Assembly: GCA_021513695.1 (NCBI GenBank)
Contig: CP084166.1
Span: forward strand, 2,784,001 to 2,848,000
Source of the DNA: Candidatus Heimdallarchaeum aukensis
GTDB lineage: Archaea; Asgardarchaeota; Heimdallarchaeia; Heimdallarchaeales; Heimdallarchaeaceae
Reading direction: 5' to 3'
Length of the DNA stretch: 64,000 bases
Position numbers and translations under genes: made by a program. Below the pieces are notes generated by a model, which had not been told where the DNA came from, searched no databases, and was given only the letters and a program-made list of their open reading frames with translations. Positions 1 through 64,000 of the stretch are shown here, in pieces; positions within the stretch are counted from its first letter, which is position 1; the number at the start of each line of letters is the position of its first letter.

Positions 1-25
1 TATTCTTTATATCCAACTTTCATCG

Positions 26-589
26 TTGTATTGGGCTGGATTATTTGAAGAAATTTCTTTCAGATTCTTGATCATGGGTGTTCCCTTATTTATTATTCAT
101 GGTTTTCGTTACTTAATAGCAAAGATTTTACAATATTATAAATCAAAAAATGAGGTTCCAGTGAAAGAAAAAGAAGAAAACAAAAAAATAGAGAATCCTT
201 TTCTCTATTTAACTGGTCGTTGGAAAAAGTTAAGGATTATTGATTTTGTTTTCTTGATAGCTTCTTCTTTCTTTTTTGGTTATGTTCATTATCAATTTGG
301 AAGTTGGGCTATATGGAAAATCTTTCAGGCTGGAATTGCTGGACTTATTTTTGGATATGCTTTCTATAAATTTGGTTTGCACGCAGCTATCTTCCTTCAT
401 ACAGTCAATGATTTTGCAATAGGTATAATGCTTGTTCCAAATTTAGGGTTAATGGTTCAAGGAGGATTTGTAGTTATTGTACTTGTTTTAATGGGAATAA
501 TGTACTCATTCTATATTTTTTCATTATTTCTTAAAAAAACAAGCAATCTAAGCTTTAGAAAATTGAATAAACAAAAAGAGGTAAACTAA
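26..589 (+). CDS. CPBP family intramembrane glutamic endopeptidase (CAAX protease/Abi-like), probably 5'-partial
   Basis: Multi-pass hydrophobic protein carrying the CPBP motifs EExxxR (EEISFRF) and HxxxN (HTVNDF). The frame is open to the window edge, so the true start may lie upstream. Its stop overlaps the next start (taATGa at 587-591). Confidence 0.6.
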   Translation: MYWAGLFEEISFRFLIMGVPLFIIHGFRYLIAKILQYYKSKNEVPVKEKEENKKIENPFLYLTGRWKKLRIIDFVFLIASSFFFGYVHYQFGSWAIWKIFQAGIAGLIFGYAFYKFGLHAAIFLHTVNDFAIGIMLVPNLGLMVQGGFVVIVLVLMGIMYSFYIFSLFLKKTSNLSFRKLNKQKEVN

Positions 590-1176
590 TGACACTTGAT
601 AGCAGATTATACTTTAAAGTTGTTTTAGCTGGAGAAGCAGGGGTAGGAAAAACAAGTCTTCGAAGAAGTTATTTGGGAGTAGGATTCCAGACACAGCATT
701 TAAGTACTATAGGTGCAGACTTTGCAAGTTATTCTACAAAAATAAATGAACAAAGAGTGAATTTTCAGATTTGGGATTTAGCTGGTCAAGATATCTTCGA
801 AAGCATGCGAAATTTGTATTATAAAGGAAGTTTGGGTGCATTGATGGTTTTTGATGTAACCGATGTATCTAGTCTAGAAGCCTTAAACAATTGGATAATT
901 GAATTAGATAAAAATTCAGGTAGAGGAATTGTACCTTTTTCCATATTAGGAAATAAAATAGATCTATTAGATGAGGAAGAACTCAATAAAATAAGAAAAA
1001 CTGTAGACTTAGTCATAAAAAAATACAATAAAAAATTTGCAAGTAAGGGTTTTTCGATTAATTATTTTGAAACTTCAGCGAAAACTGGCCATAATGTCAA
1101 AATCGCTTTTAATAATCTTGGAGAATCAATTTTTAATTATCTTGAATTCAGAAGAAAGAAGAGGGAAGAAAGTTGA
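589..1176 (+). CDS. Rab/Ras-like small GTPase
   Basis: G1 GEAGVGKTS, switch I TIGADF (Rab-like), G3 DLAGQD, G4 GNKID and G5 ETSAK are present. The C-terminus is polybasic (RRKKREES) with no CaaX cysteine. Confidence 0.85.
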   Translation: MTLDSRLYFKVVLAGEAGVGKTSLRRSYLGVGFQTQHLSTIGADFASYSTKINEQRVNFQIWDLAGQDIFESMRNLYYKGSLGALMVFDVTDVSSLEALNNWIIELDKNSGRGIVPFSILGNKIDLLDEEELNKIRKTVDLVIKKYNKKFASKGFSINYFETSAKTGHNVKIAFNNLGESIFNYLEFRRKKREES

Positions 1177-3527
1177 AAAATATTGATGTTGAACTAAGAG
1201 ATTTATTGAGAACTGGAAAAAAAGAATCTATTGATATAAATAACCTAAAAAAACTAAAAAGTATAATTCTCTTCCTAAATGACGAGGATCGTGAAATAAG
1301 ACGTACTACACAAGAGATTCTCTTATCTGCTCCTATAATCCCAGTTAGCGAAATTGTTGATCTTTATCTCTCTACTGAGAGTGAATATGTTGCTGATTTT
1401 ATAGTTGAAAATTTAAATATTTTCTTAATTGATTTGGTAGACAGATTTAGTAACAAGATAGATAGTATTATTGTTTCTGAATTAATTAAAAAAATCCCTG
1501 TAAAAGATTTATTTGCTACTTTAGTCGAAATCGCTGAAATTACTCCTATTTCAGCTAAAAAAGCTGAACTCATAATCCGAACATGTTATCCTTCTTTTTC
1601 AGAAAGCATGAATTCATTAATATCCTATGATTTTATTGAAAATTTCAAAAAAGAGATAAAAAAACTTCTTTCTATAAGACTAAAAGAGAATGATAAAAAT
1701 ATTACAACTCTTGTTCTAAAGACTGCGTGTTTCTTTCCTGAACTTCCCCCTCTGATAGAAAAAGAACTAATTAATATCATTAATCATTCAGATATAGAGG
1801 AACACATAATTTATGCAACTACTGCTTTAATAAATGTAGAAAACAAAAAGAATGCGCAGATTCTAGCTAATAGACTTAAAAATGGAAAAGATTCAGAAAA
1901 AGTAAAATTAGCTATTATTGAATCCCTTGGTAATATAGGAAATCCAAAGATTGCGCCAATAATGATCGAATTATTCGATGAAGGAGGACAGATAGCTTAC
2001 TCTACATCTAAAAGTCTGGGGTCAATGGGTGTTGAAGTCTTACCTTATTTAGTTCAAGCATTAAAAGAAGATCGTTATATACCAAATATTGTAGAGTCTA
2101 TGAAACGTATTGGTAGTGCAAGCTTCGAATATCTGATGACTAGCTTGGAAAAGGAAAGAAATATACAAATTAGAAAAAACATTGCTCATTGTTTAACACT
2201 GGTGATGCATGAACAATATGGTTATGAGGGAACAATTAAACTACTAACAAACGAATTAGCAGGAAAAAATCGAGAGCTAGTAGAAGCAGTAACTCAAGCG
2301 CTAATAAATTTAGGTACTCCTTCAATTGAGTATCTCATTGATGAATTAAATGATAAAGATCGCGAATTAAGAAAAAATGCAGTAAAAATTCTTGAACATT
2401 TTGGAGAAGGAAATATTGAAATTGCTCTTGATGGGTTACTTGAAACAGATGAAGATAGAGTAGGTACATTGAGTATTATATTATATGTTTACCATCCTGA
2501 TGAAAGATTAAGAAAATTAGGATATTCTTTTGCTGTTCATAAAGGAAATCTAAGAGCTAAAAAAACAGACAAATTACTTGAAATATTGACTGATGCCCTT
2601 AATGAAATTGACCCCTATATTCGAATTCGTTCTTGTGATATACTTGTATTTTTCAAAAGTAAGGCCATTCCTCATTTAACCAAACTTCTCTCTGACCCAA
2701 ACATTCTAGTTAAAAGAAAAGCAGCAGAGGCACTACGTACAATAAAAAGCAAAAGAGCATTAATAGCATTGATGAATGCTGCTACTGATAAAGACCCAAT
2801 AGTTTCTGAAATTTCTACAAGAGCTTTGGGAGAATTAGGAGATCCAGGTGTTGTAGATATCATTCTTGGGAATTTAAAGAGAAATAGTCAAGCAATATAT
2901 GAAGCTTCAGTTTATGCTCTTTCTCAACTAGGAACACCTATATTACACAAGATAACAAAAGAATTAAGCAGTTCAAATAAAAAAGTTGTAGATGGTATAG
3001 TCGATGCAATATCGAAAATAGGGACAGTTGGACTAGAAATTCTGATAAAAAAATATTTAGAAGAGAACGGAAGAAGAGTTGCACAAATTGAACGAATAAT
3101 TGGAAAAATGGGCGAAACAGCAATACCTGCAATATTAGAAATATATGAAAAGACTAGTGATTCTCAAAATAAAGAAAAGTTATTGAGACTAAGGGCAAAG
3201 ATTAAAGATACTTCTGTAACTAAAGAAATAGTTGAAAAGCTACAAAAACCAGCTAGTAAAAAAACAGCAATTGAACTTATAAATTTGATTGGAATTGAAT
3301 GTGTGAATAAAATAGTTGATGAATTACTCAAATTAGAACAAAACAAAGTAAAAAGGATTTTCACAAAGAATATTAAAATTGAACCTAAAATATTGGTTTC
3401 GATTATTAAGGAGTTGAAATTAAGAGAACAACAGCAACTTGCACTACATCTTATTAATCAAAACCAAAGAACGTTAAAGAAATTTGTAAGCGAGAATCCA
3501 GAATTTGAAAGTTTGTTTGAAGAATAA
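1173..3527 (+). CDS. HEAT/PBS-lyase-like repeat protein (784 aa)
   Basis: Repeated ~30-aa units of the form LG(N/E)IG...A...L....D....VR..A..AL (PBS lyase HEAT-like repeats). The TTG start overlaps the GTPase stop (tTGA). Confidence 0.7.
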   Translation: MKNIDVELRDLLRTGKKESIDINNLKKLKSIILFLNDEDREIRRTTQEILLSAPIIPVSEIVDLYLSTESEYVADFIVENLNIFLIDLVDRFSNKIDSIIVSELIKKIPVKDLFATLVEIAEITPISAKKAELIIRTCYPSFSESMNSLISYDFIENFKKEIKKLLSIRLKENDKNITTLVLKTACFFPELPPLIEKELINIINHSDIEEHIIYATTALINVENKKNAQILANRLKNGKDSEKVKLAIIESLGNIGNPKIAPIMIELFDEGGQIAYSTSKSLGSMGVEVLPYLVQALKEDRYIPNIVESMKRIGSASFEYLMTSLEKERNIQIRKNIAHCLTLVMHEQYGYEGTIKLLTNELAGKNRELVEAVTQALINLGTPSIEYLIDELNDKDRELRKNAVKILEHFGEGNIEIALDGLLETDEDRVGTLSIILYVYHPDERLRKLGYSFAVHKGNLRAKKTDKLLEILTDALNEIDPYIRIRSCDILVFFKSKAIPHLTKLLSDPNILVKRKAAEALRTIKSKRALIALMNAATDKDPIVSEISTRALGELGDPGVVDIILGNLKRNSQAIYEASVYALSQLGTPILHKITKELSSSNKKVVDGIVDAISKIGTVGLEILIKKYLEENGRRVAQIERIIGKMGETAIPAILEIYEKTSDSQNKEKLLRLRAKIKDTSVTKEIVEKLQKPASKKTAIELINLIGIECVNKIVDELLKLEQNKVKRIFTKNIKIEPKILVSIIKELKLREQQQLALHLINQNQRTLKKFVSENPEFESLFEE

Positions 3528-3528
3528 G

Positions 3529-4533
3529 CTAAAAATCTTTTTTCTCAATTTCTCCTTTTTGCATTTGTGGTATTAACTCTTTTATCAGTAAAGGAAGCAA
3601 GTTAAGTTCCATGTGAAAAGGAGAAAAAATTTCGATATTTTTCTCATCAAAATTGAAATATGGTTTTTCTACAGTTTCCACAAGATAATAGTCTAATATT
3701 TTAAAATCTTGAATAGTTGAAAAGAGTATAGTAAAATTTTCAGTTAATTGTTGCAATATTTTCTCTTTTTCTGATTTTGAAGTAAGCTGGAAAAGGTTTA
3801 GATAGCCTTCTGTTTCCATATGAATGTATAATTTAGTGGTGTTATCAATTAAATTTATTCTAGGAAATTTCTCTACTAATGGCGTCTTTGCTGCTAGAAC
3901 ATTAGTTAGTTTATTTCTCTCAGGAATAATAGTATGATCTGTTAGTATCAAAAACTTGTTAACGCGTATCCTTTTACTTTTAAAAAGAAATTCTTTATTA
4001 TCCGGATTGTAACTGATTTCTTGTTTCCTATATTCTATTAGTTCTACTTTTAATTTTTTTAGTTCATTTAAAATATAAGCTGCTAAACCCCCTAAATTAT
4101 TTATAACAAGTGAGGAATCAGAAATTAAGCCCTTGTTATATCTCTCTGAATTTAATAAAGGGAGAGTTTGTTTAATCTCTTTTTGTCTTAAAATACTGCA
4201 GTTCATATTAGAATTTTGTAGTTTATTATACATCTCTTCAGTTTCACGTAGAGAACTGTTTAGAATTAATAGTGAAGCTTTTGAAATATCAAAGGATTTT
4301 GTAGTGTAAAATAAATCATTATAAAATTCTAAAGAGGTAGTCAATATTTGTTCAATCTTTTCTAGTGGGTATGAAAATAATGGATAGACAAAACTAGGGA
4401 GAAAAAGACTGTTGCGAATAAGTTCTTCGTTGTAAAAATAAGTTATCTTTAAATCTGAATTTTCTTTCATTATTTGATAGACTAAAATTAAGCTGGTGAG
4501 ATTATTTCCAATGACAACTATATCTCTTTCCAT
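3529..4533 (-). CDS. hypothetical protein (334 aa), degenerate Rossmann-like N-terminus
   Basis: Long ORF whose N-terminus (DIVVIGNNLTSL) resembles a degenerate dinucleotide-binding beta-alpha-beta motif. No other motif was recognised. Confidence 0.45.
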   Translation of the reverse strand: MERDIVVIGNNLTSLILVYQIMKENSDLKITYFYNEELIRNSLFLPSFVYPLFSYPLEKIEQILTTSLEFYNDLFYTTKSFDISKASLLILNSSLRETEEMYNKLQNSNMNCSILRQKEIKQTLPLLNSERYNKGLISDSSLVINNLGGLAAYILNELKKLKVELIEYRKQEISYNPDNKEFLFKSKRIRVNKFLILTDHTIIPERNKLTNVLAAKTPLVEKFPRINLIDNTTKLYIHMETEGYLNLFQLTSKSEKEKILQQLTENFTILFSTIQDFKILDYYLVETVEKPYFNFDEKNIEIFSPFHMELNLLPLLIKELIPQMQKGEIEKKDF

Positions 4534-4584
4534 TATTCAAATAATAACAAATGGATTTATAAATTCGATTGTGTAGAGAAACAT

Positions 4585-4863
4585 ATGTCATATGTGATAA
4601 AATTAAAAGTAATTAAACAAGAAGGACATTGTGCTTCAGGGCACAAAGTTGGGGATGAAATTGAGATTAATTACAATGACAATTCAATAAAAGGAAAAAT
4701 TTGTCTTCATGCTCTCTATTCAATTCTTCCCAAAGTTTTTGCTATGGCGTATGGATCTGAGTTTCCATGGTTAGAAAATGCTGATGTTTCCACACATGCA
4801 TGTCCAGATTACAAGAATCCAGTGGTTTTTGAGGTTAGAAGAGAAAAAATAAAAGAAAATTAA
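4585..4863 (+). CDS. small Cys-containing protein, TIGR04076-like
   Basis: 92 aa with C..GHKVGDE...ICLHAL..LP......G..FPW......ACPD..NPVVFE.RR. This matches my recollection of the TIGR04076 family consensus. Confidence 0.5.
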   Translation: MSYVIKLKVIKQEGHCASGHKVGDEIEINYNDNSIKGKICLHALYSILPKVFAMAYGSEFPWLENADVSTHACPDYKNPVVFEVRREKIKEN

Positions 4864-4896
4864 ACTTTAGATATTTCAAAAATAAAAAAAGATAAG

Positions 4897-5817
4897 CTAT
4901 CCTTTGACCAATTTTATTATTGCATCTATTATAAAATCTAATAGAAATACAAGGAATACGATTAATAAGATTTCTTTTGTAGTATATGCCCATTTAGGAT
5001 TTTGAGTAATGATTATTGCTATAGCTAAACCTAATACTAGTAGAGCCAAGATAATAGCAATAATAAGTGAGGGTAAGTATAAGTCAGCAATAATCATCGC
5101 ACCAATAGCTCCCCCTGCTAGACCTAGAAGGAAAAAAGCACCTACGATGCCAGCTACTCTTGGACCAAAAACAACAGCTATAGTTTTGTTTCCTGCTTTT
5201 TTATCTCCTTCGATGTCTGGTAAACCTTTTATTACTTCTCTACCTACATTTCCAGAAGCTGCCGCAAGACCTACAATAGTTGGAACCCAAGTAAAACCTT
5301 GTTGATAAACAAAATAACTGAATAGAGATCCATAGACAAAGAGAGCTACAACATTCAATCCAATAAGCACATTACCAAAAAATCCCATCTGTTTTACTTT
5401 GAAATTGTATAAGTTTAATGAACTTCCAAATATTAAAGCTGTAATAACACTTATTCCTGGTAAACCTTCTCTAATATCAATTAACAAAGCTAAAATTAGA
5501 GCGATCAAAGCAACAATTACCCCGTAAATAACTGCTGTTCTTACTGATATTTTCTTTGATGGTATAGGTCTATGTGGAGCATTTACTAGATCTTCTTCTC
5601 TGTCTGCAATATCATTAAAAATCATAGCTTGAGATGAAACGAGCGTACCAGATAATAGAACAAGTAGAAGGGTTATGTAATCAATTTTTGCTCCTACAGG
5701 AGTTGATAGAATGATAGCAAAAATTGCAGCTGTTCCTGCTACTATACCATTTACTAACCTAAGAATTGTTATATAAGAAAGAAAAATATCTTTTTTCGAG
5801 TGTTTTGTTAAAGACAT
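4897..5817 (-). CDS. UbiA-family prenyltransferase, likely digeranylgeranylglyceryl phosphate (DGGGP) synthase
   Basis: Polytopic membrane protein with the NDxxDxxxD motif (NDIADREED) near residue 70 and a second Asp-rich motif (DIEGDKK) near residue 200. Its length of 306 aa is typical of archaeal DGGGPS. Confidence 0.75.
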   Translation of the reverse strand: MSLTKHSKKDIFLSYITILRLVNGIVAGTAAIFAIILSTPVGAKIDYITLLLVLLSGTLVSSQAMIFNDIADREEDLVNAPHRPIPSKKISVRTAVIYGVIVALIALILALLIDIREGLPGISVITALIFGSSLNLYNFKVKQMGFFGNVLIGLNVVALFVYGSLFSYFVYQQGFTWVPTIVGLAAASGNVGREVIKGLPDIEGDKKAGNKTIAVVFGPRVAGIVGAFFLLGLAGGAIGAMIIADLYLPSLIIAIILALLVLGLAIAIIITQNPKWAYTTKEILLIVFLVFLLDFIIDAIIKLVKG

Positions 5818-7240
5818 AAGGTCTAATCATTAGCAGATGAATTTAAATCTTACCTCTTTTTTTGAGTATAAATTACTCGCTTTTTTTTCCTGTTATCTCA
5901 AATGTTTTGATTTCACTATCATTTTCAGGAAGTTTAAGCAGTTCTAAAAGTGATAAGATCATCTTGCCAAATAATTTTTCCATAAATTCATTTAAAGGAA
6001 TCTCTTTTCCATTAATCTTTACTTCTATTTCATCTAACATGAAAAAAAAAACACTGTTGAGTTTATTAATTTTATCTTAATCTCAAATGAATAATTATAA
6101 CTTTTTTAGTTAAAGAATTCACTTAACCAAGAGTTCACTATACTTTTTTGCTAAATTAAATGAAAAAAATTTAAAGAAAAGAAGCAATAAAATTATATTT
6201 AAATATTATGAGCGTAGGTAAGAATATAGGTGTAAATTTTCATGGAAGTAGGTGCGTTAATTTTTATGCTACTAATTGCACTGGCAGTGTACATAACCAT
6301 AAGGGTTTCCTCAGCGAATAAGAAGAAGAGAAAACAAATTTATCGTAAACGATATCAACCTTATCAACCTTACAGACCTTATCAGCCATCACACCTAGAT
6401 TCTTCTCAAAGAACAAGTTATCAGAGTGAAGAAACCACCCCAACAACAAGAACTTCTTCTATTTATCAACCTCAAACTCAACCCTCTTATACTCCACAAA
6501 GAACTCCAATAGCAACAAATAATGCCGATGATTATTATCGTGCAGGAATGTACGATAGAGCAAAAGAAGAATATCTTAAAACAGGGAGGATATTTGGTGC
6601 AGCTAAATCTGTAGCTTCTAAAGGAAAAGAATATGTAAAAGAAGCTTTGGAAATAATTAGACAATATGCTCCAGAAAGAGAAGAAGAAATGGTAAGAAAT
6701 CTTTCAAGATACTTTTTTGATAGTGGAGATGTAGAATTATCAGCTCAAGTATTATATGATTATAATCTTATTGAAGAAGCTAAAGCAGTATTAGCTACCA
6801 TAGGAAAGAGTATAGAAGATATAGTTGAACCTAAATCTGTTGAGATTAGCACATTCAGTAGCACTGAACCCTTTCTATCTAGTACTGAAAGTGAAACAGA
6901 ACCTATCATTTCCAGTTTTGCTAGCGATACTGAACCAATAAATGATGCAAGAGAAGAGCTGAAAGTATTGGCAAGTGAAGAAGAAGCAGAACCCATTGAG
7001 CCTTTTACAAGTCAAGTTGAAAAACAGAAAAAAATAGAACCACAACAACTAAAGATAGCTACAGTAGATTTAGATGAAAGATGTACAGTTTGTTTAGGAG
7101 AAGTAAAAGCAGGAGAAAGTTTTGTTAGATGTCCCCATTGTGGAAAACCTTCTCATTATTCTCATTTAGTAGAATGGCTAAAAGTAAAAACCCAATGTCC
7201 TAACTGTAGAAACAAATTATCATTAAATATGTTTAAAACA
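5098..7240. repeat. tandem direct duplication, copy 1 (2143 bp)
   Basis: Direct sequence comparison: 5098-7240 matches 7241-9381 apart from two 1-bp indels. The left edge lies inside the UbiA CDS. Confidence 0.9.
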
Positions 7241-7264
7241 CGCACCAATAGCTCCCCCTGCTAG
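6242..7264 (+). CDS. membrane-anchored RING-like zinc-finger protein with YQP repeats
   Basis: N-terminal TM helix, a KKKRK stretch, YQPYQPYRPYQP repeats, a low-complexity S/T/E-rich middle, and a C-terminal CxxC-x12-CPHC-x4-HxxH-x10-CPNC (RING/zinc-ribbon-like). The last 7 codons read across the duplication junction. Confidence 0.6.
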   Translation: MEVGALIFMLLIALAVYITIRVSSANKKKRKQIYRKRYQPYQPYRPYQPSHLDSSQRTSYQSEETTPTTRTSSIYQPQTQPSYTPQRTPIATNNADDYYRAGMYDRAKEEYLKTGRIFGAAKSVASKGKEYVKEALEIIRQYAPEREEEMVRNLSRYFFDSGDVELSAQVLYDYNLIEEAKAVLATIGKSIEDIVEPKSVEISTFSSTEPFLSSTESETEPIISSFASDTEPINDAREELKVLASEEEAEPIEPFTSQVEKQKKIEPQQLKIATVDLDERCTVCLGEVKAGESFVRCPHCGKPSHYSHLVEWLKVKTQCPNCRNKLSLNMFKTRTNSSPC

Positions 7265-7959
7265 ACCTAGAAGGAAAAAAGCACCTACGATGCCAGCTAC
7301 TCTTGGACCAAAAACAACAGCTATAGTTTTGTTTCCTGCTTTTTTATCTCCTTCGATGTCTGGTAAACCTTTTATTACTTCTCTACCTACATTTCCAGAA
7401 GCTGCCGCAAGACCTACAATAGTTGGAACCCAAGTAAAACCTTGTTGATAAACAAAATAACTGAATAGAGATCCATAGACAAAGAGAGCTACAACATTCA
7501 ATCCAATAAGCACATTACCAAAAAATCCCATCTGTTTTACTTTGAAATTGTATAAGTTTAATGAACTTCCAAATATTAAAGCTGTAATAACACTTATTCC
7601 TGGTAAACCTTCTCTAATATCAATTAACAAAGCTAAAATTAGAGCGATCAAAGCAACAATTACCCCGTAAATAACTGCTGTTCTTACTGATATTTTCTTT
7701 GATGGTATAGGTCTATGTGGAGCATTTACTAGATCTTCTTCTCTGTCTGCAATATCATTAAAAATCATAGCTTGAGATGAAACGAGCGTACCAGATAATA
7801 GAACAAGTAGAAGGGTTATGTATCAATTTTTGCTCCTACAGGAGTTGATAGAATGATAGCAAAAATTGCAGCTGTTCCTGCTACTATACCATTTACTAAC
7901 CTAAGAATTGTTATATAAGAAAGAAAAATATCTTTTTTCGAGTGTTTTGTTAAAGACAT
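7241..7959 (-). pseudogene. UbiA prenyltransferase fragment (duplicate copy, 3'-truncated and frameshifted)
   Basis: Duplicate of the first ~240 codons of the 4897..5817 gene. A 1-bp deletion breaks the frame, and the C-terminal 66 codons are absent. Confidence 0.8.
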
Positions 7960-9381
7960 AAGGTCTAATCATTAGCAGATGAATTTAAATCTTACCTCTT
8001 TTTTTGAGTATAAATTACTCGCTTTTTTTTCCTGTTATCTCAAATGTTTTGATTTCACTATCATTTTCAGGAAGTTTAAGCAGTTCTAAAAGTGATAAGA
8101 TCATCTTGCCAAATAATTTTTCCATAAATTCATTTAAAGGAATCTCTTTTCCATTAATCTTTACTTCTATTTCATCTAACATGAAAAAAAAAACACTGTT
8201 GAGTTTATTAATTTTATCTTAATCTCAAATGAATAATTATAACTTTTTTAGTTAAAGAATTCACTTAACCAAGAGTTCACTATACTTTTTTGCTAAATTA
8301 AATGAAAAAAATTTAAAGAAAAGAAGCAATAAAATTATATTTAAATATTATGAGCGTAGGTAAGAATATAGGTGTAAATTTTCATGGAAGTAGGTGCGTT
8401 AATTTTTATGCTACTAATTGCACTGGCAGTGTACATAACCATAAGGGTTTCCTCAGCGAATAAGAAGAAGAGAAAACAAATTTATCGTAAACGATATCAA
8501 CCTTATCAACCTTACAGACCTTATCAGCCATCACACCTAGATTCTTCTCAAAGAACAAGTTATCAGAGTGAAGAAACCACCCCAACAACAAGAACTTCTT
8601 CTATTTATCAACCTCAAACTCAACCCTCTTATACTCCACAAAGAACTCCAATAGCAACAAATAATGCCGATGATTATTATCGTGCAGGAATGTACGATAG
8701 AGCAAAAGAAGAATATCTTAAAACAGGGAGGATATTTGGTGCAGCTAAATCTGTAGCTTCTAAAGGAAAAGAATATGTAAAAGAAGCTTTGGAAATAATT
8801 AGACAATATGCTCCAGAAAGGAAGAAGAAATGGTAAGAAATCTTTCAAGATACTTTTTTGATAGTGGAGATGTAGAATTATCAGCTCAAGTATTATATGA
8901 TTATAATCTTATTGAAGAAGCTAAAGCAGTATTAGCTACCATAGGAAAGAGTATAGAAGATATAGTTGAACCTAAATCTGTTGAGATTAGCACATTCAGT
9001 AGCACTGAACCCTTTCTATCTAGTACTGAAAGTGAAACAGAACCTATCATTTCCAGTTTTGCTAGCGATACTGAACCAATAAATGATGCAAGAGAAGAGC
9101 TGAAAGTATTGGCAAGTGAAGAAGAAGCAGAACCCATTGAGCCTTTTACAAGTCAAGTTGAAAAACAGAAAAAAATAGAACCACAACAACTAAAGATAGC
9201 TACAGTAGATTTAGATGAAAGATGTACAGTTTGTTTAGGAGAAGTAAAAGCAGGAGAAAGTTTTGTTAGATGTCCCCATTGTGGAAAACCTTCTCATTAT
9301 TCTCATTTAGTAGAATGGCTAAAAGTAAAAACCCAATGTCCTAACTGTAGAAACAAATTATCATTAAATATGTTTAAAACA
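7241..9381. repeat. tandem direct duplication, copy 2 (2141 bp)
   Basis: Identical to copy 1 except that an 'a' is deleted near 7810 (copy 1 has gtaatc at ~5669) and another near 8820 (copy 1 has aaagagaag at ~6678). Confidence 0.9.
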
Positions 9382-9384
9382 TAA
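8384..9384 (+). pseudogene. RING-like zinc-finger protein, duplicate copy with frameshift
   Basis: Identical to 6242..7264 except for a 1-bp deletion at ~8820. The deletion splits it into ORFs 8384..8836 and 8830..9384. It keeps the apparent native stop (..MFKT*). Confidence 0.8.
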
Positions 9385-9391
9385 TAAAATT

Positions 9392-9880
9392 CTATTTTTT
9401 TTCCACACCCTCATTTTGATATATACCACTATATCCTTTTGCCACTTTATCTTTTATTTCGAAAAAGACTAGTTGAGCAATTCTCGCATTTTGATGGATG
9501 TTTATTGTTCTAGAAGTATAGAGAAGGCCTATTCCTCTTCCTTTGTATCCTGGATCCCATAAAGCAGAAAAAATAGTTGCTCCGATTCTCATCAATGAAG
9601 AACGAGGAAGAAGAATTGCCGCCATATCTAATGGCACACTGACTATTTCATTATATTGGACTACATATCCACCAGGTTGAAGAACCCAGCGGTTATTACT
9701 TTTTGGTAGTTCAACATAATCAGGAATAAATCTTTGTGAATTATCGAAGTCTAGTTCTCCACCATCATCAAGAATAAAGATGTTCCGTACAGTAAGATCG
9801 ATGCCTGCACTTTGAACTTGCTTTTTTATATTCACTGCGGAACTAACATTGTTTATAATAGAAGAAGGAGGAATAATCAT
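9392..9880 (-). CDS. dCTP deaminase/dUTPase-family protein (likely dUTP diphosphatase)
   Basis: Motifs PRSSLMRIG, WDPGYKGRGIGLL and NARIAQLVF are typical of the Dcd/Dut beta-barrel family. Its 162 aa fit an archaeal dUTPase. Confidence 0.7.
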   Translation of the reverse strand: MIIPPSSIINNVSSAVNIKKQVQSAGIDLTVRNIFILDDGGELDFDNSQRFIPDYVELPKSNNRWVLQPGGYVVQYNEIVSVPLDMAAILLPRSSLMRIGATIFSALWDPGYKGRGIGLLYTSRTINIHQNARIAQLVFFEIKDKVAKGYSGIYQNEGVEKK

Positions 9881-9953
9881 TTAATCTCACATTTTTCTTA
9901 TAGTTGCTAAGCTTCAAATTAGTTAATTATTGATCTTTTTTCTAAAGCCTATA

Positions 9954-10271
9954 TTAGTTGAAATAGGAACTGAGTTTCTCTTCTTTTTGGCAAACGTTGC
10001 AGTCTTCTTCTTGATAACTTAATATGTCTCTTGCAATTTTTGCGTTGTGTCTATCCTTCTGAATGCTATAGCAAAGTTTTGAAGGAGAACATGTTCCTTT
10101 TGTAAAGTAGGTCTTCTTATTTGCATTATAGAAAAGTTTTCCTCCTTTTAATGGACAGTTACAAACTTCGATATATACAGGAGAGTTATCATAATTAATG
10201 TTAGTTATCTTAGCAAGTGCTTTTTCTAACCTATTATCCAGATAATGATCTTGAACCTTTTGATAAGTCAT
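9954..10271 (-). CDS. hypothetical Cys-rich small protein (105 aa)
   Basis: ORF with eight Cys (CNCP, C, C, C, CNVC). It sits immediately downstream of the TnpB right end. No family was recognised. Confidence 0.4.
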   Translation of the reverse strand: MTYQKVQDHYLDNRLEKALAKITNINYDNSPVYIEVCNCPLKGGKLFYNANKKTYFTKGTCSPSKLCYSIQKDRHNAKIARDILSYQEEDCNVCQKEEKLSSYFN

Positions 10272-10500
10272 TGTAATTAAATTACAATGTTAAGTATAAA
10301 GATGTGTAATACTTAAGAATTATAGTTAACTAAGTTAGGATATTTTCTCAATAACATGGTCTACTTTTTCCTAAATTCCGATTTAGATTAAAAATCGGAA
10401 GAAGTAGTAAGTTTAGTCGGTGGAAAAAAAGAAAGAGAAAGAACAGCGTAAAAGCTGGTCTAACTAACTTAACTTGCTAACTTATTTTCCAACGGACGGG
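10272..10500 (-). ncRNA. candidate TnpB omega-RNA (reRNA) / IS right-end region
   Basis: Non-coding stretch immediately 3' of and overlapping the tnpB end. It contains stem-loops and is placed by analogy with known IS605 omega-RNA loci. Confidence 0.3.
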
Positions 10501-11736: not shown

Positions 11737-12015
11737 TTATTTTTACTTTTTTCCCTATTTAAACTCCTCATCTTCCCTCCTCTCCTCTCTTCTCCTCTCC
11801 TTTATTCTTCTTTTTTCCCCCTCTTCTACAACTTCGTAATTTCGGAAAAAGTAAACCATCAGAACTTCTTTTACGCATTTTTTAGTAATTGTTGAACTTA
11901 AGAGTTTCAAGAACTTTTGTAAAGAGAAATAATTTTGAACATTTATTGTAAAAATACTTTAAATAGTGAATTGACTTCTGTTGTACAGAGAGAATTATAT
12001 AAAGAAGTGAAGAAA

Positions 12016-54775: not shown

Positions 54776-55543
54776 TTAGAAATAAAATTGCTCATCTACA
54801 TGTACAATTATTCCATTTTTTGTAATAGTGAACGGTCTTTCCATCATCTCATGCTTTTGTCCACGCATTTTTCTAATATTAAGACTTCTTACACCTAGTG
54901 TGTTGACAAATTTGTAATTAAGGACAATTACTCCTTGACTCATGAATTCTTCTACACCAAAACGGGAAACTTCGGTTCCTGCCATCTCGCTGGTTAATAT
55001 AGTTGTACAATCCAAGGAACTCATAACTGCAGAAAGCTTAAGTATTTCTCTTCGAATTTGTTGTTCACTAGCCATCGAAAGAGCTAGAGCAGTAATGCTA
55101 TCGATAACTACTCTTTCTGCTCCAATTGCATCTATAGTTGTAATTAATTGATTAATGAGTTCATCTACATCCACAGGAGTTTGATATTTCTCGTTTGAAC
55201 TCACTCCTGCTCTAGGACTAAAACCATCAATTATAACTAATAAATCCTGTTCTTCAAGTTCTCGAAGATTCCAACCAAAATTAAGACACTGCTGTCTTAC
55301 GTGCTCTGGGTGTTCATCAAATGAAACAAAAATACCTGTTTCTCCCGCCGAGACAATACCGTGATAGAGAAATTGGTGACCAAAAGTAGACTTTCCTCCA
55401 CCAGCAGGCCCTGCTAATAATATTGTTCTCCCTTTGGGAAGACCGCCACCCAAAATTTTGTCTAGTCCTGGAATACCTGTTTCTACTAATTCCATCATTA
55501 CCACAAAAAAATAATAAATAGGAAATAATAAGTTTTTGCACAC
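54776..55543 (-). CDS. KaiC-like/RecA-superfamily ATPase (single KaiC domain)
   Basis: GIPGLDKILGGGLPKGRTILLAGPAGGGKSTF. The likely true start is the MMELVE Met (~55495). Confidence 0.8.
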   Translation of the reverse strand: MCKNLLFPIYYFFVVMMELVETGIPGLDKILGGGLPKGRTILLAGPAGGGKSTFGHQFLYHGIVSAGETGIFVSFDEHPEHVRQQCLNFGWNLRELEEQDLLVIIDGFSPRAGVSSNEKYQTPVDVDELINQLITTIDAIGAERVVIDSITALALSMASEQQIRREILKLSAVMSSLDCTTILTSEMAGTEVSRFGVEEFMSQGVIVLNYKFVNTLGVRSLNIRKMRGQKHEMMERPFTITKNGIIVHVDEQFYF

Positions 55544-58515: not shown

Positions 58516-59211
58516 TTGTTGACTAAGCTTATGTCAAAACTTGGTCAATCTATGGTATTAACAAAAATTTTTCAAATCACAGGAGGAATCATTTTAATCT
58601 TGATATCAATTGCTGGTATGATCGATACTGAAAAAACTTTACAAATTATGCGTTGGGTTCTATCTTCTATTCTGATTATATTTTCAATTTCAATAATACT
58701 ATATACTTTCTTGGCAATAGAGAAAACTGAAAAAACAAAGCGCATTCTCTTTATAGTAACTAGTGTTATTGTTCTTGTTCTAGGTATACTTCCTATGATC
58801 TTTGGTTCTGTAGCTAGTCAAATGATAACAATAATTTTAATGGTTATAATGTTTGTAACTGGATGTTTACGTATTTCAATAGGCTTCAAATCATCTACGC
58901 TTCCCAGATGGAAAACTAACATTTACATATTGGTAGGCTCTGTTGCTGCAACACTTTCGTCTGTAGTACTAATCTTTTATTCAAGATCAGTCACTTCTTC
59001 TGTTGTCTTCTTTTTTGCATTTCTCCTTACTTTAACAGGAGGGACTCTTATTCTAGATGGTATAACTAAACCCAAAGAAGGTCATTATAAAATTAGAGAA
59101 GAGAAAGAAGAGCAAAAAGGTGAAGAAAAATTAGAAACTAAAACCGAAGAAAAATTAGAAGAGCCCACTGAAACTGAAACAGAAGATATCAAAGAAACAA
59201 ATGACGAGTAA
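58516..59211 (+). CDS. multi-pass membrane protein with an acidic K/E-rich C-terminal tail
   Basis: Six predicted TM helices, then EEKEEQKGEEKLETKTEEKLEEPTETETED. Confidence 0.5.
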   Translation: MLTKLMSKLGQSMVLTKIFQITGGIILILISIAGMIDTEKTLQIMRWVLSSILIIFSISIILYTFLAIEKTEKTKRILFIVTSVIVLVLGILPMIFGSVASQMITIILMVIMFVTGCLRISIGFKSSTLPRWKTNIYILVGSVAATLSSVVLIFYSRSVTSSVVFFFAFLLTLTGGTLILDGITKPKEGHYKIREEKEEQKGEEKLETKTEEKLEEPTETETEDIKETNDE

Positions 59212-59372
59212 TTTTTACTCTTTTTTCTCCTTTTTTACTTTTTTTGTTATTATAAGAACATGCCAATAGGAAACTCGTTAAACTTATTTACTCCAATTAA
59301 AGCATGGGTTGGGCATTATAGCAAAAATATTAAAAAGGTATGACAAATTGGATTGATGTAGAGAAATAATGG

Positions 59373-60200
59373 GTGGATAAAAAGGTGAAAAAACATTACG
59401 TCCTTGCTTTAGTTTTTATAATTAGTTTGTCATTTAGTTTAACCCCAAAACTAAACATTAGTGCTCAAATAGAAGAGGAAGAAATAGACTGGGACTATTC
59501 AGGGTTGATTAAGTTCCAAGCAGATAGAATAAAATTTGATGAGGATTCTCCAATTAAGTTGAGATACTACTATCATCTTTTCTATAATGAAGAAACAGAG
59601 ACAGTAGAGTCATTAGTTGTTCTTTATGGACTAAGGCCCATTATAAGTGCTCCTTATTATTCAAAATTTTTCAGTGAAGGTGCAACCTATACCCGCTTTA
59701 GCTACTGGTTAAACGATTCCTATGACATTGACTGGATAGATATAACTTATGAATCAGTAACCGATGAGACTTCAGAAAATTATGCTCCTGAATATTTAAC
59801 AGTTTACAATGCTATTGCAAATAATTCCTTATTCAAGACACGATCAGATGTTTGGGAAAGAACAGGAGTTATTAAATTTCCAATTCATTTTGCTAACTTA
59901 TCTAGTGTTATAGGAGAAACAATCGGGTTGTGGGAAATCATCCAAAGAGATGGTACAATTATCCGTGGACAATTTACAACTTATGGCAAAACTAATCCTA
60001 TTTTTGAAGATCCAAAATCAAGCTATACATGGCCTGATTATAATGTGACAGTTGCACAAGACATAGAAAGATCTTCTTTGCCGAGAGAACATTCAGTTAG
60101 AGTTCCTTACTCTCTCACTTCAACAGTATTAGCAAGTTTTGCATTAACTTTATTCCTAAATGTTCTAAAAAGAAGTAAAAAAAAGGAGATGAAAAATTAA
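59373..60200 (+). CDS. secreted/surface protein with N-terminal signal and C-terminal TM anchor (paralog A)
   Basis: Signal peptide, then the EEEEIDWDYSGLIKF motif shared with the next gene, then a C-terminal helix plus KRSKKKEMKN. Confidence 0.5.
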   Translation: MDKKVKKHYVLALVFIISLSFSLTPKLNISAQIEEEEIDWDYSGLIKFQADRIKFDEDSPIKLRYYYHLFYNEETETVESLVVLYGLRPIISAPYYSKFFSEGATYTRFSYWLNDSYDIDWIDITYESVTDETSENYAPEYLTVYNAIANNSLFKTRSDVWERTGVIKFPIHFANLSSVIGETIGLWEIIQRDGTIIRGQFTTYGKTNPIFEDPKSSYTWPDYNVTVAQDIERSSLPREHSVRVPYSLTSTVLASFALTLFLNVLKRSKKKEMKN

Positions 60201-61550
60201 ATGAAATATAAACAAGTTTTTTTTGTATTTACAACTCTAATCTTATTCTCTTCATTAATTGCTAACATCAATCTCATTACTTATGCACAAGATGACGAAT
60301 CAGAGTGGGATTTTTCCGGAGTAATTAGGGTAGATAGTGAATTAAGAAGACCTCCAATTTTTCAAGCTGAAGAACTAGATCAAACTAAACCAACAATTTT
60401 TCCTTTAAATGATGTAAGCTTAGAACTTAATACAACTGAAAACAGTCTTCAATGGTTTGTATCTGATTTGTATCCAGGAGATTTCCCTGATAACTATTCA
60501 ATTTATATGAATGATAGTCTTATTCAAAATGGGAAATGGGAATCAAATCAATATATAACTGTAAATTTGGACGATTTAGAAAATGGGAATTATCGTTATT
60601 CTATAATTATTCAAGATATTAAAGGGAACAAAGCTCAAGATGAAGTTTATGTAAGTGTAGTAAATGAAACTGCTCCATACATAAGACAAGTAGCAGATAT
60701 AGAGTTCTTTGAGGGGAGTAGCATTGGACCAATTGTTTGGCAAGTAACTGATAAAAATCTATCAAGTTATGTAATTCAACGAAATGGAGGAACAGTAGAC
60801 TCGAATACTTGGTCAGAAAATACTAGTGAAAGTGATTGGAACCCAGAGAGCCCAACTATTTCTTACGCTATATCTGCATTAGAGATAGGAGAACATAATA
60901 TTACTCTAATTGTTGAAGATATTTATGGACAGCAAAGTGTTGACACAGTTATTGTAACAGTAAAGGATCCGTCAACTAGAATAAATTATGAAAATTATGA
61001 ACCTCCTAACATAGAAATAGCAGTACTAGGTTTGGACACAAATGATGATGATTCAATGGATACTTACTATGGATTTTATGGAATAATCGAAGATCCAGGT
61101 GTGGAAGGGTACTTTACTAAAATCCTTGAACCATACCTTGGTGCAACTTGGAGAATGAGAATTCCTCAAGATTCCCCAGCTACTTGGGAAGTAATATACT
61201 ATCCTAATCCTATATATGATAAAATAAGGCCTTATTTAGCTTATGAAGCACCAGTATATTTTGTTAACTTAACAGTTGCCACTGGCGTAAATTTAGAATA
61301 TGAAATAGATCTCGGAAGAAACACAACATATGGAAACTTAACAACATATGGTGCTGACAATCCATTGTTCCCAGAAGTACCAGAGTACTCAGGATATAAT
61401 TTTGCCATTCCATACTACACAGGAACAAAAGAAAATGAAGTTACAGTAGAAACTGATTTCTTTAGCAGCCTATCATCAATGATAAGTATTGTATCTCTTT
61501 CATTTTCAGTTTTAGTCCTTTATAATAAAACGAAAAGAAAAATGAAATAA
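60201..61550 (+). CDS. secreted/surface protein with N-terminal signal and C-terminal TM anchor (paralog B)
   Basis: Signal peptide, then the DDESEWDFSGVIRV motif, then a C-terminal helix plus KTKRKMK. Its start abuts the previous stop (taaATG). Confidence 0.5.
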   Translation: MKYKQVFFVFTTLILFSSLIANINLITYAQDDESEWDFSGVIRVDSELRRPPIFQAEELDQTKPTIFPLNDVSLELNTTENSLQWFVSDLYPGDFPDNYSIYMNDSLIQNGKWESNQYITVNLDDLENGNYRYSIIIQDIKGNKAQDEVYVSVVNETAPYIRQVADIEFFEGSSIGPIVWQVTDKNLSSYVIQRNGGTVDSNTWSENTSESDWNPESPTISYAISALEIGEHNITLIVEDIYGQQSVDTVIVTVKDPSTRINYENYEPPNIEIAVLGLDTNDDDSMDTYYGFYGIIEDPGVEGYFTKILEPYLGATWRMRIPQDSPATWEVIYYPNPIYDKIRPYLAYEAPVYFVNLTVATGVNLEYEIDLGRNTTYGNLTTYGADNPLFPEVPEYSGYNFAIPYYTGTKENEVTVETDFFSSLSSMISIVSLSFSVLVLYNKTKRKMK

Positions 61551-61620
61551 CAAAAATTCTTTTTCTTTTTATTTTTATTTCAAAGCATTTTTAAGTTCTA
61601 TTAGTTTACAACTAATTAAA

Positions 61621-62286
61621 ATGACTTTATATTCCTCCACAATAGATAGTTTGATTGTTTACATTATTGAAGGAATTGTATTATCATTGTTCGTCTGTAC
61701 TTTTTTTATTAAAAAAAGAAAAATTAGAAAAATAGTAAATGGTGCCGGAGGGCTATTGTTATTCATTCTATTTGTTTTTGGAATATTGTATGATCTTAAA
61801 GATTTTTTAGTCTTATTTTCACTTTCTACTATCATAGTATTTCTTCTAAAAATGATGATTGAAGATAAAAGGGTGAAATACATATGGATTACACTAGCTT
61901 CCTTTGTTTTAATTGCTTTCAGTGTAAAAACACATCTTGAAATAATGTTTTTGTTAAGTTTATGTTTAAGTGTTATCCTGTTTTTATCATTTACTGCAGT
62001 TTCATACTATGAAACAAGTAAAAGAAAAAAAATGGAGAAAGAAGAATTTGAAATTTTTTCTTTAATTTTGGGGGCAGTTTTTTCTCTAACTCTTTGCGCT
62101 CCTCTTGTTTTTTTGATTGTGACTTTTGATTATTCTCAGCTAAATATCGACCTAATGAAGCAAAACAATAATCTAGGAATAGAAGGAAGTCTGGCTATAC
62201 TCTTTGGGATATTCTTGGTGGTTTTTGTTTTCTTATTTATCTATGATTTTGTAGAAGGTAGGAGAGAAAAAGAATGGTATCAGTAG
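61621..62286 (+). CDS. multi-pass membrane protein
   Basis: Six hydrophobic helices. The ORF overlaps the next one. Confidence 0.45.
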   Translation: MTLYSSTIDSLIVYIIEGIVLSLFVCTFFIKKRKIRKIVNGAGGLLLFILFVFGILYDLKDFLVLFSLSTIIVFLLKMMIEDKRVKYIWITLASFVLIAFSVKTHLEIMFLLSLCLSVILFLSFTAVSYYETSKRKKMEKEEFEIFSLILGAVFSLTLCAPLVFLIVTFDYSQLNIDLMKQNNNLGIEGSLAILFGIFLVVFVFLFIYDFVEGRREKEWYQ

Positions 62287-62540
62287 AAACTTATCTTGTT
62301 TTATGTTTAGTAATAATATTCATAGGACTAATTGCTTTTAAATATCATCTGACAAATATCAAATTTATTTACGGAATAACAGTAATTTATATTGGAGCGA
62401 TTTGCTTATCTTTTCTTTTTAATAGTGCCCAAGATGAAATTATCTTTGTCTATACTGGAATATTTTCAATCTTAACTATAATTTTGTTAGCAATAAAATC
62501 ACCTGTATTTGAAGCAAAAATAAAGGAGAATGAACAATGA
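62274..62540 (+). CDS. small membrane protein (3 TM)
   Basis: Hydrophobic 88-aa ORF, start/stop-coupled to its neighbours. Confidence 0.4.
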   Translation: MVSVETYLVLCLVIIFIGLIAFKYHLTNIKFIYGITVIYIGAICLSFLFNSAQDEIIFVYTGIFSILTIILLAIKSPVFEAKIKENEQ

Positions 62541-62995
62541 GTGAAAAAGAAGTTGAAGACATAAAAGAAGTTGAAGACATAAAAGAAGTTGAAGACATAA
62601 AAGAAGTTGAGGAAAGAGAAAAACTTCCAAAAAAAGAAAAAGAAGTTAAAAAAGAGAGAAAAAGTAAATCTTTTCTTCCTAAGATTAAAGAAGTAATCAT
62701 TAAGTCCTCAAATTACTTTTTTGTAGCAATATTATATCTAAAAGTTATCAAACCTGCATTTTATGGCTTAAAAATAGGTGTAAATTTTCTTTTAGAATTA
62801 GGAAAAAATTTCTTTGTAATAGTTTCAAAGTTTTTTTACAAGTTGTATATGGTTATTAAAAAGAACATGGAAGAATTATCATTTTTTGTTCATAGATTTG
62901 AGCGTGCACCGCTTAATCTTCAAATATGGGTTACAAGTGTATTTGTTTTTCTATTAGTTTCAATTTGGATAGCTTTCGGGGGTAGAGTGGGATGA
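62537..62995 (+). CDS. EVEDIK-repeat protein with a C-terminal TM helix
   Basis: Three exact 18-nt repeats (gaagttgaagacataaaa) encode EVEDIK x3 plus a degenerate fourth. The C-terminal part is hydrophobic. Confidence 0.45.
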   Translation: MSEKEVEDIKEVEDIKEVEDIKEVEEREKLPKKEKEVKKERKSKSFLPKIKEVIIKSSNYFFVAILYLKVIKPAFYGLKIGVNFLLELGKNFFVIVSKFFYKLYMVIKKNMEELSFFVHRFERAPLNLQIWVTSVFVFLLVSIWIAFGGRVG

Positions 62996-64000
62996 TTTTC
63001 TGGGTAATAACAGGAATATATCTTTTTGGAATTGCAGCTATTTTTATATTGGAAAGATCATCACAATTTATAACAAAACTGTTTCCACTACTAAAAGGAA
63101 AAACGAGGATAGTTTTTAACTATATCAGTGTTTTAATTACAATTTGTGCTTATATTGTATATTTGTATACTGTCCATCCATTTAGTCAGAGTACAAAGAT
63201 ATTAGAAAAATTTGCTTTTTCACCATTTTCAAGCATATTTTTGGCATTATCTACTCTATTAATATCAGTCACAGGATTTTTCCTCTTGTCAGATGTAGAT
63301 GAATTTAGCAATAGGAGTAAAGTGGGTTATAGTTCTCTACTCTTTACACAATATTCTGCATTTATTATGTTTTCATCCGTCTCTTGGGTTTTTATTTATC
63401 TAGGATTGCTAGGTATAATTGTGGGCATAACATTTATTTTGCGAAACATATATCTAAAAAAAGAAATTGAAGTAACAAAAGAACTTCATTCTATGTTTGT
63501 TTTTGATATATTTAGCTTGGTTTTTCTTTTTTTGGGGATTTTATTCTACAATTTAGTTTTTAACTCTTTTATAATTCAAATTAAACCAAGAAATGATTTT
63601 TGGGCACTAGAATTATTAAGTTTCATATTCATATTTTGTTCAAGTCTAATTCTCCTTGAGATTCCACCCTTTCATTTCAGAAGCTTTTCTGAAGTTAATA
63701 AGAAATTTAAGACCCCAAAAATAGTAAATTTGTTAAAAAAACTTGTAGGTGTTTTTATGATTCTAAATTTATCACGCCCAATAAGCGTAAATTCTAACTA
63801 TAAGCAATTTTACTTCATAATTTTCTTGACAATTGGTGGAATAGTTTCTTTATGGGGCGTAGTAGGAGCAATAAATAAATTAAATATTAATGAATTACTT
63901 GTGTATATTGACTTTTATTATATTGGTACACTGCTGTTATTTTTGTCAAATAACTTTTCATCAGATGCAACAATTTCTACAAGCATTGAAGGGTATGCCT
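62992..64000 (+). CDS. multi-pass membrane protein, 3'-partial (not in supplied ORF track)
   Basis: The ATG at 62992 overlaps the previous stop (ATGA). Frame 1 is open and hydrophobic through the window end (>335 codons, many predicted TM helices). Confidence 0.5.
   Translation, partial: MIFWVITGIYLFGIAAIFILERSSQFITKLFPLLKGKTRIVFNYISVLITICAYIVYLYTVHPFSQSTKILEKFAFSPFSSIFLALSTLLISVTGFFLLSDVDEFSNRSKVGYSSLLFTQYSAFIMFSSVSWVFIYLGLLGIIVGITFILRNIYLKKEIEVTKELHSMFVFDIFSLVFLFLGILFYNLVFNSFIIQIKPRNDFWALELLSFIFIFCSSLILLEIPPFHFRSFSEVNKKFKTPKIVNLLKKLVGVFMILNLSRPISVNSNYKQFYFIIFLTIGGIVSLWGVVGAINKLNINELLVYIDFYYIGTLLLFLSNNFSSDATISTSIEGYA

Follow-up and report, generated by a model that had tools for sequence, protein, structure and literature searches.

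Candidatus Heimdallarchaeum aukensis PM71 is an Asgard archaeon with a closed circular 3.08-Mb genome, obtained from Auka vent sediment of the Pescadero Basin in an enrichment fed with alkanes (Wu et al., 2022, Nat Microbiol 7:200; PMC8813620). The NCBI taxonomy places it in Heimdallarchaeota, Heimdallarchaeia and Heimdallarchaeaceae, and it shares 88% average nucleotide identity and 90% average amino acid identity with H. endolithica (PMC8813620). Eukaryote-signature proteins, such as gelsolin and small GTPases, are universal across the Asgard phyla (PMC8813620). Inteins form the second group of described systems that is relevant here. In canonical splicing Cys, Ser or Thr serves as the +1 nucleophile, and type A bacterial intein-like (BIL) domains are able to ligate without it: Asn cyclisation comes first, and the freed alpha-amine then attacks the thioester (2014 review, PMC4031507). 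The window considered here, i.e., the whole 64-kb stretch of DNA that was analysed, is almost certainly part of the chromosome in the closed genome published for H. aukensis PM71 (Asgard; Heimdallarchaeia; Heimdallarchaeaceae; formerly the 'AAG' or AB_125 clade). It carries a gene for the class II ribonucleotide reductase (RNR) NrdJ that is interrupted by five inteins, the fourth of which has no +1 nucleophile.

The exact-sequence look-up, which covered ten proteins of the window, was used to determine the identity of the source organism. Five of the ten, namely both small GTPases, the HEAT-repeat protein, the RING protein and PyrB, were identical to H. aukensis proteins (UJG40604-UJG40647), and ribosomal protein S17e had an exact match that is shared within the genus Candidatus Heimdallarchaeum. 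The same protein clusters also contained, as exact matches, UJG40613 and UJG40614, the split duplicate RING fragments that are peculiar to the assembly. Logan short-read contigs of run SRR15988954 reproduced 43.6 kb of the window. Their identity was 100% over positions 1-7240 and 25015-58255, and 99.94% over 7241-10391, where the only differences were two 1-nt deletions in the second copy of a tandem duplication. In the comparison with PM71 no difference was found: the proteins are identical, including the assembly-specific split open reading frames (ORFs), and the low GC content, the eukaryote-signature proteins and the transposase-rich content agree. H. endolithica PR6 belongs to the same genus, its HMG-CoA reductase (HMGR) is 92% identical, and its GTPase and HEAT orthologues are adjacent and fall into the same 90% clusters. 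It is, however, a different species, whose proteins are not identical to those of the window.

The marker proteins were placed in the same lineage. The nine best matches listed for RadA among GTDB species genomes were all Heimdallarchaeota metagenome-assembled genomes (MAGs), including AB_125, at 65-72% identity. Among the matches listed, every other lineage reached at most 57%, and the Promethearchaeota MAGs, which were taken as the Lokiarchaeota lineage in this comparison, 47-54%. The named relatives of HMGR and of the gelsolin-domain protein were Heimdall proteins first, and no Loki-labelled protein was present among the top named matches. The first-pass annotation had pointed to an Asgard archaeon, and this is confirmed by the exact H. 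aukensis proteins together with the relatives and the tree of RadA. Of the markers that it had proposed for placement, RadA and HMGR had Heimdall proteins as their nearest named relatives, and S17e was matched exactly within Candidatus Heimdallarchaeum. RadA and S17e were found together with Ras/Rab-like GTPases, gelsolin-domain and RING-type proteins, and the nearest references were Asgard in origin.

Several points weigh against the assignment to PM71. No exact NCBI match was obtained for four of the ten query proteins (HMGR, DUF354, KaiC-like and RadA), and RadA was found only in a Logan assembly; for HMGR, DUF354 and KaiC-like, the Logan gene calls differ from those of the window in the called start codon only. 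The identity with the deposited genome is based on exact proteins and Logan contigs and not on base-for-base alignment. The neighbour-joining tree in which the query clusters with the nine Heimdallarchaeota MAGs, apart from Promethearchaeota, was built from one gene (RadA) and carries no support values.

The composition of the window is uniform, with a correlation of tetranucleotide usage (r) between its two halves of 0.993. The GC content was measured at 31.7%, close to the value of about 30% stated previously, and spans 0.29-0.34 in 4-kb bins. The tetranucleotide correlation of the window with AB_125-clade loci was 0.966-0.99 for eight of nine and 0.943 for a 7.7-kb AB_125 contig, and with Promethearchaeota loci 0.94-0.974. 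The usage is closest to the same Heimdall MAGs, and low-GC Asgard lineages are only weakly separated by it. The suggested comparison of GC and tetranucleotide content thus discriminated poorly among low-GC Asgard lineages.

Apart from the origin in PM71, a chimeric or contaminated assembly was considered, in which DPANN or eukaryotic DNA would have been joined to archaeal DNA and the eukaryote-like genes would be foreign to the markers. This is very improbable. A local assembly problem is indeed present in the form of the 2.1-kb duplication, and some members of the protein clusters are labelled 'Pacearchaeota'. However, eukaryote-signature genes are found together with archaeal markers on the same independent short-read contigs at 100% identity, the composition is uniform, and the GTPases have no eukaryotic prenylation tails. 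Moreover, the adjacency of the GTPase and HEAT genes recurs, with consecutive accessions, in H. endolithica and other Heimdallarchaeaceae MAGs. An origin in a Lokiarchaeota (Promethearchaeota/Lokiarchaeia) genome is less credible still: the low GC (0.317) and the eukaryote-signature set do resemble published Loki genomes, and the correlations with Promethearchaeota loci are high, but it is refuted by the exact protein identity to H. aukensis, and the RadA identities and tree and the lack of Loki-labelled proteins among the top named HMGR and gelsolin matches also speak against it.

The label 'Lokiarchaeota-like', given to the stretch at first, has to be replaced by Heimdallarchaeum. What the window has in common with Lokiarchaeota/Promethearchaeota (Lokiarchaeum, Prometheoarchaeum) is Asgard membership, low GC, small GTPases, gelsolin-domain proteins and RING proteins; they differ in belonging to another phylum and in RadA. 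The gene combination was also described as a hallmark of Lokiarchaeota genomes. It is not one, because the eukaryote-signature set is universal across Asgard phyla (PMC8813620). The mixture of archaeal housekeeping and eukaryote-signature genes is the normal content of Heimdallarchaeaceae and of Asgard archaea generally and does not mark Lokiarchaeota. As a re-identified segment of a published Asgard genome, the window is already known. The main text of the genome paper (PMC8813620) makes no mention of inteins, of the HMGR class or of the duplication at 5098-9381, and the intein lineage described below is the only element of the window that might be new.

The class II RNR, noted in the first-pass annotation, was recovered by profile searches. 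NrdJ scored 1028 bits with NF006417 (cut-off 961) and 618 bits with TIGR02504 (cut-off 400), has a C-terminal TSCPD domain and was aligned to T. maritima NrdJ. Five inteins interrupt 721 aa of extein. The six extein pieces sum exactly to the length of the intein-free Heimdallarchaeaceae homologue P0287; five pieces could be aligned to it (68-100% identity), and a 22-aa piece, read against the sequences, is about 80% identical. A count of four inteins was excluded by this 22-aa segment (aa 667-688), which splits one apparent intein in two. The whole gene is 100% identical in Logan contig L084. The junctions of inteins 1, 2, 3 and 5 (HN/C, HN/T, SN/S and LD/C; the slash marks the junction) are presumably canonical or known variants. 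By a crude count, five inteins are the highest load among about 56 long NrdJ homologues.

Intein 4 is characterized by an otherwise complete set of intein motifs. Its Cys1 (C1134), the block B motif TYNH (TxxH) and the C-terminus VHN1581 are present, and the LAGLIDADG motifs and blocks A, B, F and G are intact. Cys, Ser or Thr is absent from its +1 position, which is occupied by Arg1582, and from the next 17 residues. Two possible errors behind the +1 Arg were rejected. A mis-set junction is excluded since KQGG joined to RRRGA equals the intein-free Heimdall allele in both sequence and length, and a nanopore error is excluded since the short-read contig has the identical junction. Intein 4 and its relatives also contain an internal GR..(R/K)(R/K)GAN motif about 100 aa before the C-terminus (window 30600-30650), which mimics the start of the C-extein, xRRGAN. 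A metagenomic protein, P0241, resembles a deletion between the two copies, by which blocks F and G were removed.

The absence of the nucleophile is not restricted to this intein. In a census of homologous inteins at the intein 4 site, 48 of 84 C-terminal junctions were followed by Thr or Ser at +1, and 36 had no nucleophile, carrying Lys (24), Arg (9) or, in the rest, Val, Ile or Gly. Of the inteins in the census, 61 were complete; 25 of these lack a nucleophile (+1 Lys, Arg, Val or Ile) and together form one clade, which adjoins a +1-Thr clade at the same site. Conservation of at least 80% was seen in the no-nucleophile clade for Cys1, TxxH of block B, the two LAGLIDADG motifs, block F and the C-terminal His-Asn. 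Its named sources are Heimdallarchaeaceae, Hodarchaeales, Thorarchaeota and other archaeal MAGs. At the position matching the +1 residue, intein-free alleles carry T, R, V, K, S or C. A literature search for inteins without a +1 nucleophile returned BIL domains only, and none in RNR or Asgard archaea, with incomplete coverage; a search for inteins in Asgard archaea, whose coverage was likewise incomplete, gave nothing relevant.

Judging from the sequences, intein 4 may stand for a naturally occurring lineage of inteins that are of full length and carry an endonuclease, have lost the +1 nucleophile and would still be removed from an essential enzyme, that is, by scarless splicing independent of the nucleophile. 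This is a tentative proposal, more doubtful than probable. Like the type A BIL domains, intein 4 has an N-terminal Cys and a C-terminal His-Asn and no +1 nucleophile. BIL domains occur in variable bacterial surface proteins and are not known to carry homing endonucleases. Intein 4, in contrast, lies within an essential enzyme, in one of its conserved loops, contains a LAGLIDADG endonuclease and groups beside canonical +1-Thr inteins. By analogy, a BIL-like route would be the likeliest for its splicing: a thioester would form at Cys1, Asn cyclisation would free the C-extein, and the alpha-amine of the C-extein would then attack the thioester. Another candidate explanation is cleavage without ligation, which would result in a two-piece RNR. 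A dead or inactive NrdJ gene is a further candidate. Intein and extein are both conserved, which argues for a functional gene.

The deposited sequence also contains a tandem duplication of 2,143 bp. Copy 2 differs from copy 1 only by the loss of one nucleotide at each of two places; as a result, the second UbiA copy is truncated (7223-7768) and the second RING copy is broken in two (8384-8836 and 8830-9384). At the junction of the copies (7240/7241) the sequence reads ...TTTAAAACA / CGCACCAATAG. Logan contig SRR15988954_169 (L001) contains the region in one copy only and shows no other difference, and the three duplication-specific ORFs (340, 150 and 184 aa) were recorded in no Logan assembly. 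For the H. aukensis genome, SPAdes contigs had been joined into scaffolds by means of nanopore reads, for which the DNA was amplified by multiple displacement amplification (PMC8813620). The duplication is more probably an artefact of this nanopore scaffolding than real. The probable 2.1-kb scaffolding duplication in the deposited closed genome leads to three spurious or truncated ORFs, which is relevant to users of this reference.

The remaining gene content was verified by Pfam and NCBIfam profile searches, in which the scores were judged against the model cut-offs. About 57 genes cover 92% of the window as coding sequence; scans of all 64 kb for tRNA genes and Rfam families gave zero matches. 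As had been noted, start and stop codons overlap frequently: 9 of 38 same-strand adjacent gene pairs overlap by 1-13 nt and two further pairs abut. Such overlaps are commonplace in compact prokaryotic operons and are no lineage signal. The window is a housekeeping region with genes for recombination, nucleotide metabolism, the mevalonate/lipid pathway and a type IV pilus-like cluster, among which Asgard eukaryote-signature genes are interspersed, and this content requires no special explanation. The coordinates of the features are collected in Table 1.

Most of the archaeal genes named at first, i.e., those for RadA, S17e, PyrBI, the KaiC-like protein and the DUF354 protein, were recovered under the names given. 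The RadA protein has a Lys-rich N-terminal extension of about 77 aa (11935-12165) before the HhH domain. Part of this extension seems to be conserved in the AB_125 clade, since tblastn matches in MAGs of this clade start at residues 24-58. Sequences identical or nearly identical to S17e and to the second GTPase have been deposited as 'Candidatus Pacearchaeota archaeon', e.g., RLG11977, which suggests that Heimdall contigs were mis-binned into a DPANN MAG.

The assignment of HMGR to class I, made in the first-pass annotation, was wrong. The score with the class II model TIGR00532 was 462 bits against a cut-off of 260, and with the class I model TIGR00533 it was 79 bits against 442. The match to the class II enzyme of Pseudomonas mevalonii (1qax) has an E value of 4e-114 and covers residues 2-419, and that to human class I an E value of 2e-4. 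As judged from these comparisons, the HMG-CoA reductase of the window is of class II ('degradative', bacterial-type) and not class I. It matches the P. mevalonii 1qax type over its full length, but its host is an archaeon and its closest relatives are Asgard and other archaeal MAG proteins (56-92%). After the H. endolithica enzyme, the next named relatives are Heimdall. The nearest relatives as a whole are class II enzymes of Heimdall, Thor, Bathyarchaeota, Thermoplasmatota and Korarchaeota MAGs, with Fusobacterium at 56%.

The description of the UbiA-family prenyltransferase as DGGGPS-like held only in part. Its closest solved relative is indeed the M. jannaschii DGGGPS (6m31, E 2e-18), but all NCBIfam DGGGPS equivalog models remained far below their cut-offs (NF009521, 100 of 296 bits; NF009522, 97 of 353; NF009523, 138 of 269). 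The term is loosely supported and denotes a resemblance only.

The two Rab-type GTPases, the RING-like protein and the long HEAT-repeat protein were recovered by comparison with Pfam and the PDB. All 60 best PDB matches of each GTPase were Rab/Ypt/Sec4 proteins (for GTPase 2, Rab14/35/1/Sec4/Ypt), and both are nearest to Rab rather than to Ras, Rho, Arf or Ran. Neither carries a C-terminal Cys prenylation motif (CC, CXC or CAAX); their C-termini are ...RRKKREES and ...KKLGENK. GTPase 1 is part of an overlapping three-gene unit (26-3527) with a CPBP/Rce1-like membrane protease and the HEAT-repeat protein. The stop codon of the protease gene overlaps the start of the GTPase 1 gene by 1 nt, and the HEAT gene overlaps the GTPase 1 gene by 4 nt. 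The GTPase-HEAT adjacency is kept in H. endolithica and other Heimdallarchaeaceae. The protease gene is cut by the window start; its full length is 592 aa on contig L001, where the unit occupies 7639-12355. A eukaryote-like relation of Rce1 and substrate between the protease and GTPase 1 is unlikely, because GTPase 1 has no CAAX tail.

The RING domain passes its zf-RING_2 cut-off marginally (27.5 against 27.3 bits). The best PDB matches of this protein are the RING-H2 E3 ligases RNF165/Arkadia (E 4e-6), and its sequence gives a ligand pattern of C-x2-C...C-x-H...H-x2-H...C-x2-C. In the deposited assembly, the end of the protein runs into the duplication junction; the version on the short-read contig L001 has 333 aa.

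The gelsolin-fold protein of the earlier description is supported at the level of the structural model. The score with Pfam Gelsolin was below the gathering threshold for this protein (13.9 against 21 bits; E 0.051). From the N- to the C-terminus, the protein consists of a gelsolin/ProGel-like domain, a linker that is disordered and rich in Lys and Glu, and a small beta domain. Of its homologues, 66 were found, and all the named ones are Heimdall. In the AlphaFold2 (AF2) model, built on 31 homologues, the N-domain has a pLDDT of about 90 and superposes on Thorarchaeota ProGel (7c2f_B) with a TM score of 0.85 and a root-mean-square deviation of 1.5 Å (E 4e-6; Foldseek probability 1.00). All 32 PDB matches at E values up to 1e-3 belong to the gelsolin family, i.e., gelsolin (including G3), adseverin, villin, fragmin and Asgard gelsolins (7whf). 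The N-domain superposes on both types of Asgard gelsolins, Thorarchaeota ProGel (7c2f) and Heimdall/Loki 2DGel (7whf/7whg), but the protein differs from them in its identity of about 20%, in its single gelsolin domain with a disordered linker, and in its unrelated C-terminal beta domain. Judged by homology, the Rab-like proteins may act as GTPase switches in membrane or trafficking regulation, the gelsolin-domain protein may take part in actin regulation, and the RING protein in ubiquitin-type ligation.

Table 1. Features of the 64-kb window, ordered by position, with strand and supporting evidence.
Feature	Position	Strand	Evidence or remark
CPBP/Rce1-like intramembrane protease, C-terminal part	26-589	+	Pfam PF02517, E 1.8e-8; cut by window start
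Rab-like small GTPase 1, 195 aa	589-1176	+	Pfam Ras, E 9e-40; UJG40604 exact
HEAT-repeat protein, 784 aa	1173-3527	+	Pfam HEAT_2, E 1.7e-33, five stretches; UJG40605 exact
UbiA-family prenyltransferase	4897-5817	-	Pfam UbiA, E 7e-30
Tandem duplication, 2,143 bp	5098-9381		copy 1, 5098-7240; copy 2, 7241-9381
Membrane-anchored protein, C-terminal RING-H2-like zinc finger	6242-7264	+	zf-RING_2, 27.5 bits; UJG40610
Archaeal dUTPase (dCTP deaminase-like fold)	9392-9880	-	NF002598, 161 vs 130 bits; Pfam DCD
IS200/IS605-type TnpB (RNA-guided nuclease family), broken	10477-11736	-	Pfam OrfB_IS605 and Cas12f1-like_TNB; NF040570, 116 vs 100 bits
RadA recombinase	11935-13113	+	Pfam Rad51, E 9e-91; NF003301, 444 vs cut-off 259 bits
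Gelsolin-domain protein, 228 aa	14956-15642	+	AF2 model and Foldseek vs PDB
Rab-like small GTPase 2, 180 aa, RabF-like motifs	15756-16298	-	Pfam Ras, E 4e-51; UJG40624
Archaeal type IV pilus/archaellum-like assembly cluster	16483-25640		Pfam T2SSF twice, T2SSE, DUF7266
Split ArlJ/UpsF-like platform protein	16483-18286		pilus-like cluster
HSP20	21078-21707		within pilus-like cluster
FlaI/PilB-like ATPase	21797-23326		pilus-like cluster
Class II (B12-dependent) RNR NrdJ, 2561-aa precursor	26098-33783	+	NF006417, TIGR02504, TSCPD domain
Intein 1	26338-27492	+	aa 81-465; C...HN/C
Intein 2, 172-aa mini-intein at SGGG site	27580-28095	+	aa 495-666; C...HN/T
Intein 3, LAGLIDADG domain	28162-29433	+	aa 689-1112; C...SN/S (ends Ser-Asn)
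Intein 4, LAGLIDADG	29497-30840	+	aa 1134-1581; KQGG/C...VHN/RRRGA
Intein 5	31174-32406	+	aa 1693-2103; C...SLD/C, final Asp instead of Asn
DUF354 protein	33849-34928	+	Pfam PF04007, E 4.5e-57
PyrB (aspartate carbamoyltransferase catalytic chain)	47335-48255	+	Pfam; UJG40647 exact
PyrI (regulatory chain)	48248-48730	+	Pfam; 8-nt overlap with PyrB
Class II HMG-CoA reductase	53061-54326	-	TIGR00532, 462 bits; PDB 1qax
Ribosomal protein S17e, 72 aa	54410-54625	-	Pfam PF00833, E 4e-20
Single-domain KaiC-like ATPase	54776-55543	-	Pfam PF06745, E 8e-75; NCBIfam below equivalog cut-offs

In the TnpB gene, the reading frame is broken by a single in-frame TAG codon (11401-11403; ...KPRPPK*KKKDG...). 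Contig L001 ends at window position 10391, just upstream of this gene, which is consistent with a repeated element. The pilus-like cluster also holds pilin-like proteins with class III signal peptides and a DUF7266 protein, and the matches to NCBIfam FlaI, ArlJ and UpsF models within the cluster were below cut-off. Five ORFs had no credible family match: 3529-4533 (334 aa), 23586-24182 (198 aa), 36485-39676 (1063 aa), 45534-47171 (545 aa) and 48824-51970 (1048 aa). A relaxed Pfam search of these ORFs and of one of 105 aa returned noise only, and an ENTH match in the 1048-aa protein (E 0.027) was not accepted. The 545-aa protein is a long coiled coil. The 198-aa ORF is situated inside the pilus-like cluster; it was suspected to be longin/roadblock-like, and its single-sequence AF2 model (pLDDT 38) was unusable. 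In 58516-64000, genes for small membrane proteins follow one another with overlaps; one of them, at 62537-62640, has a product that starts with a perfect threefold tandem repeat of the peptide KEVEDI.

Summarizing, the first reading of the window was right at the level of the superphylum and required two corrections, namely Heimdallarchaeia instead of Lokiarchaeota, and class II for HMGR. What the NrdJ locus adds is a clade of otherwise canonical inteins without the +1 nucleophile, a residue that is regarded as indispensable in textbooks. Should these inteins prove to splice, protein ligation based on inteins would be freed from its main sequence constraint.

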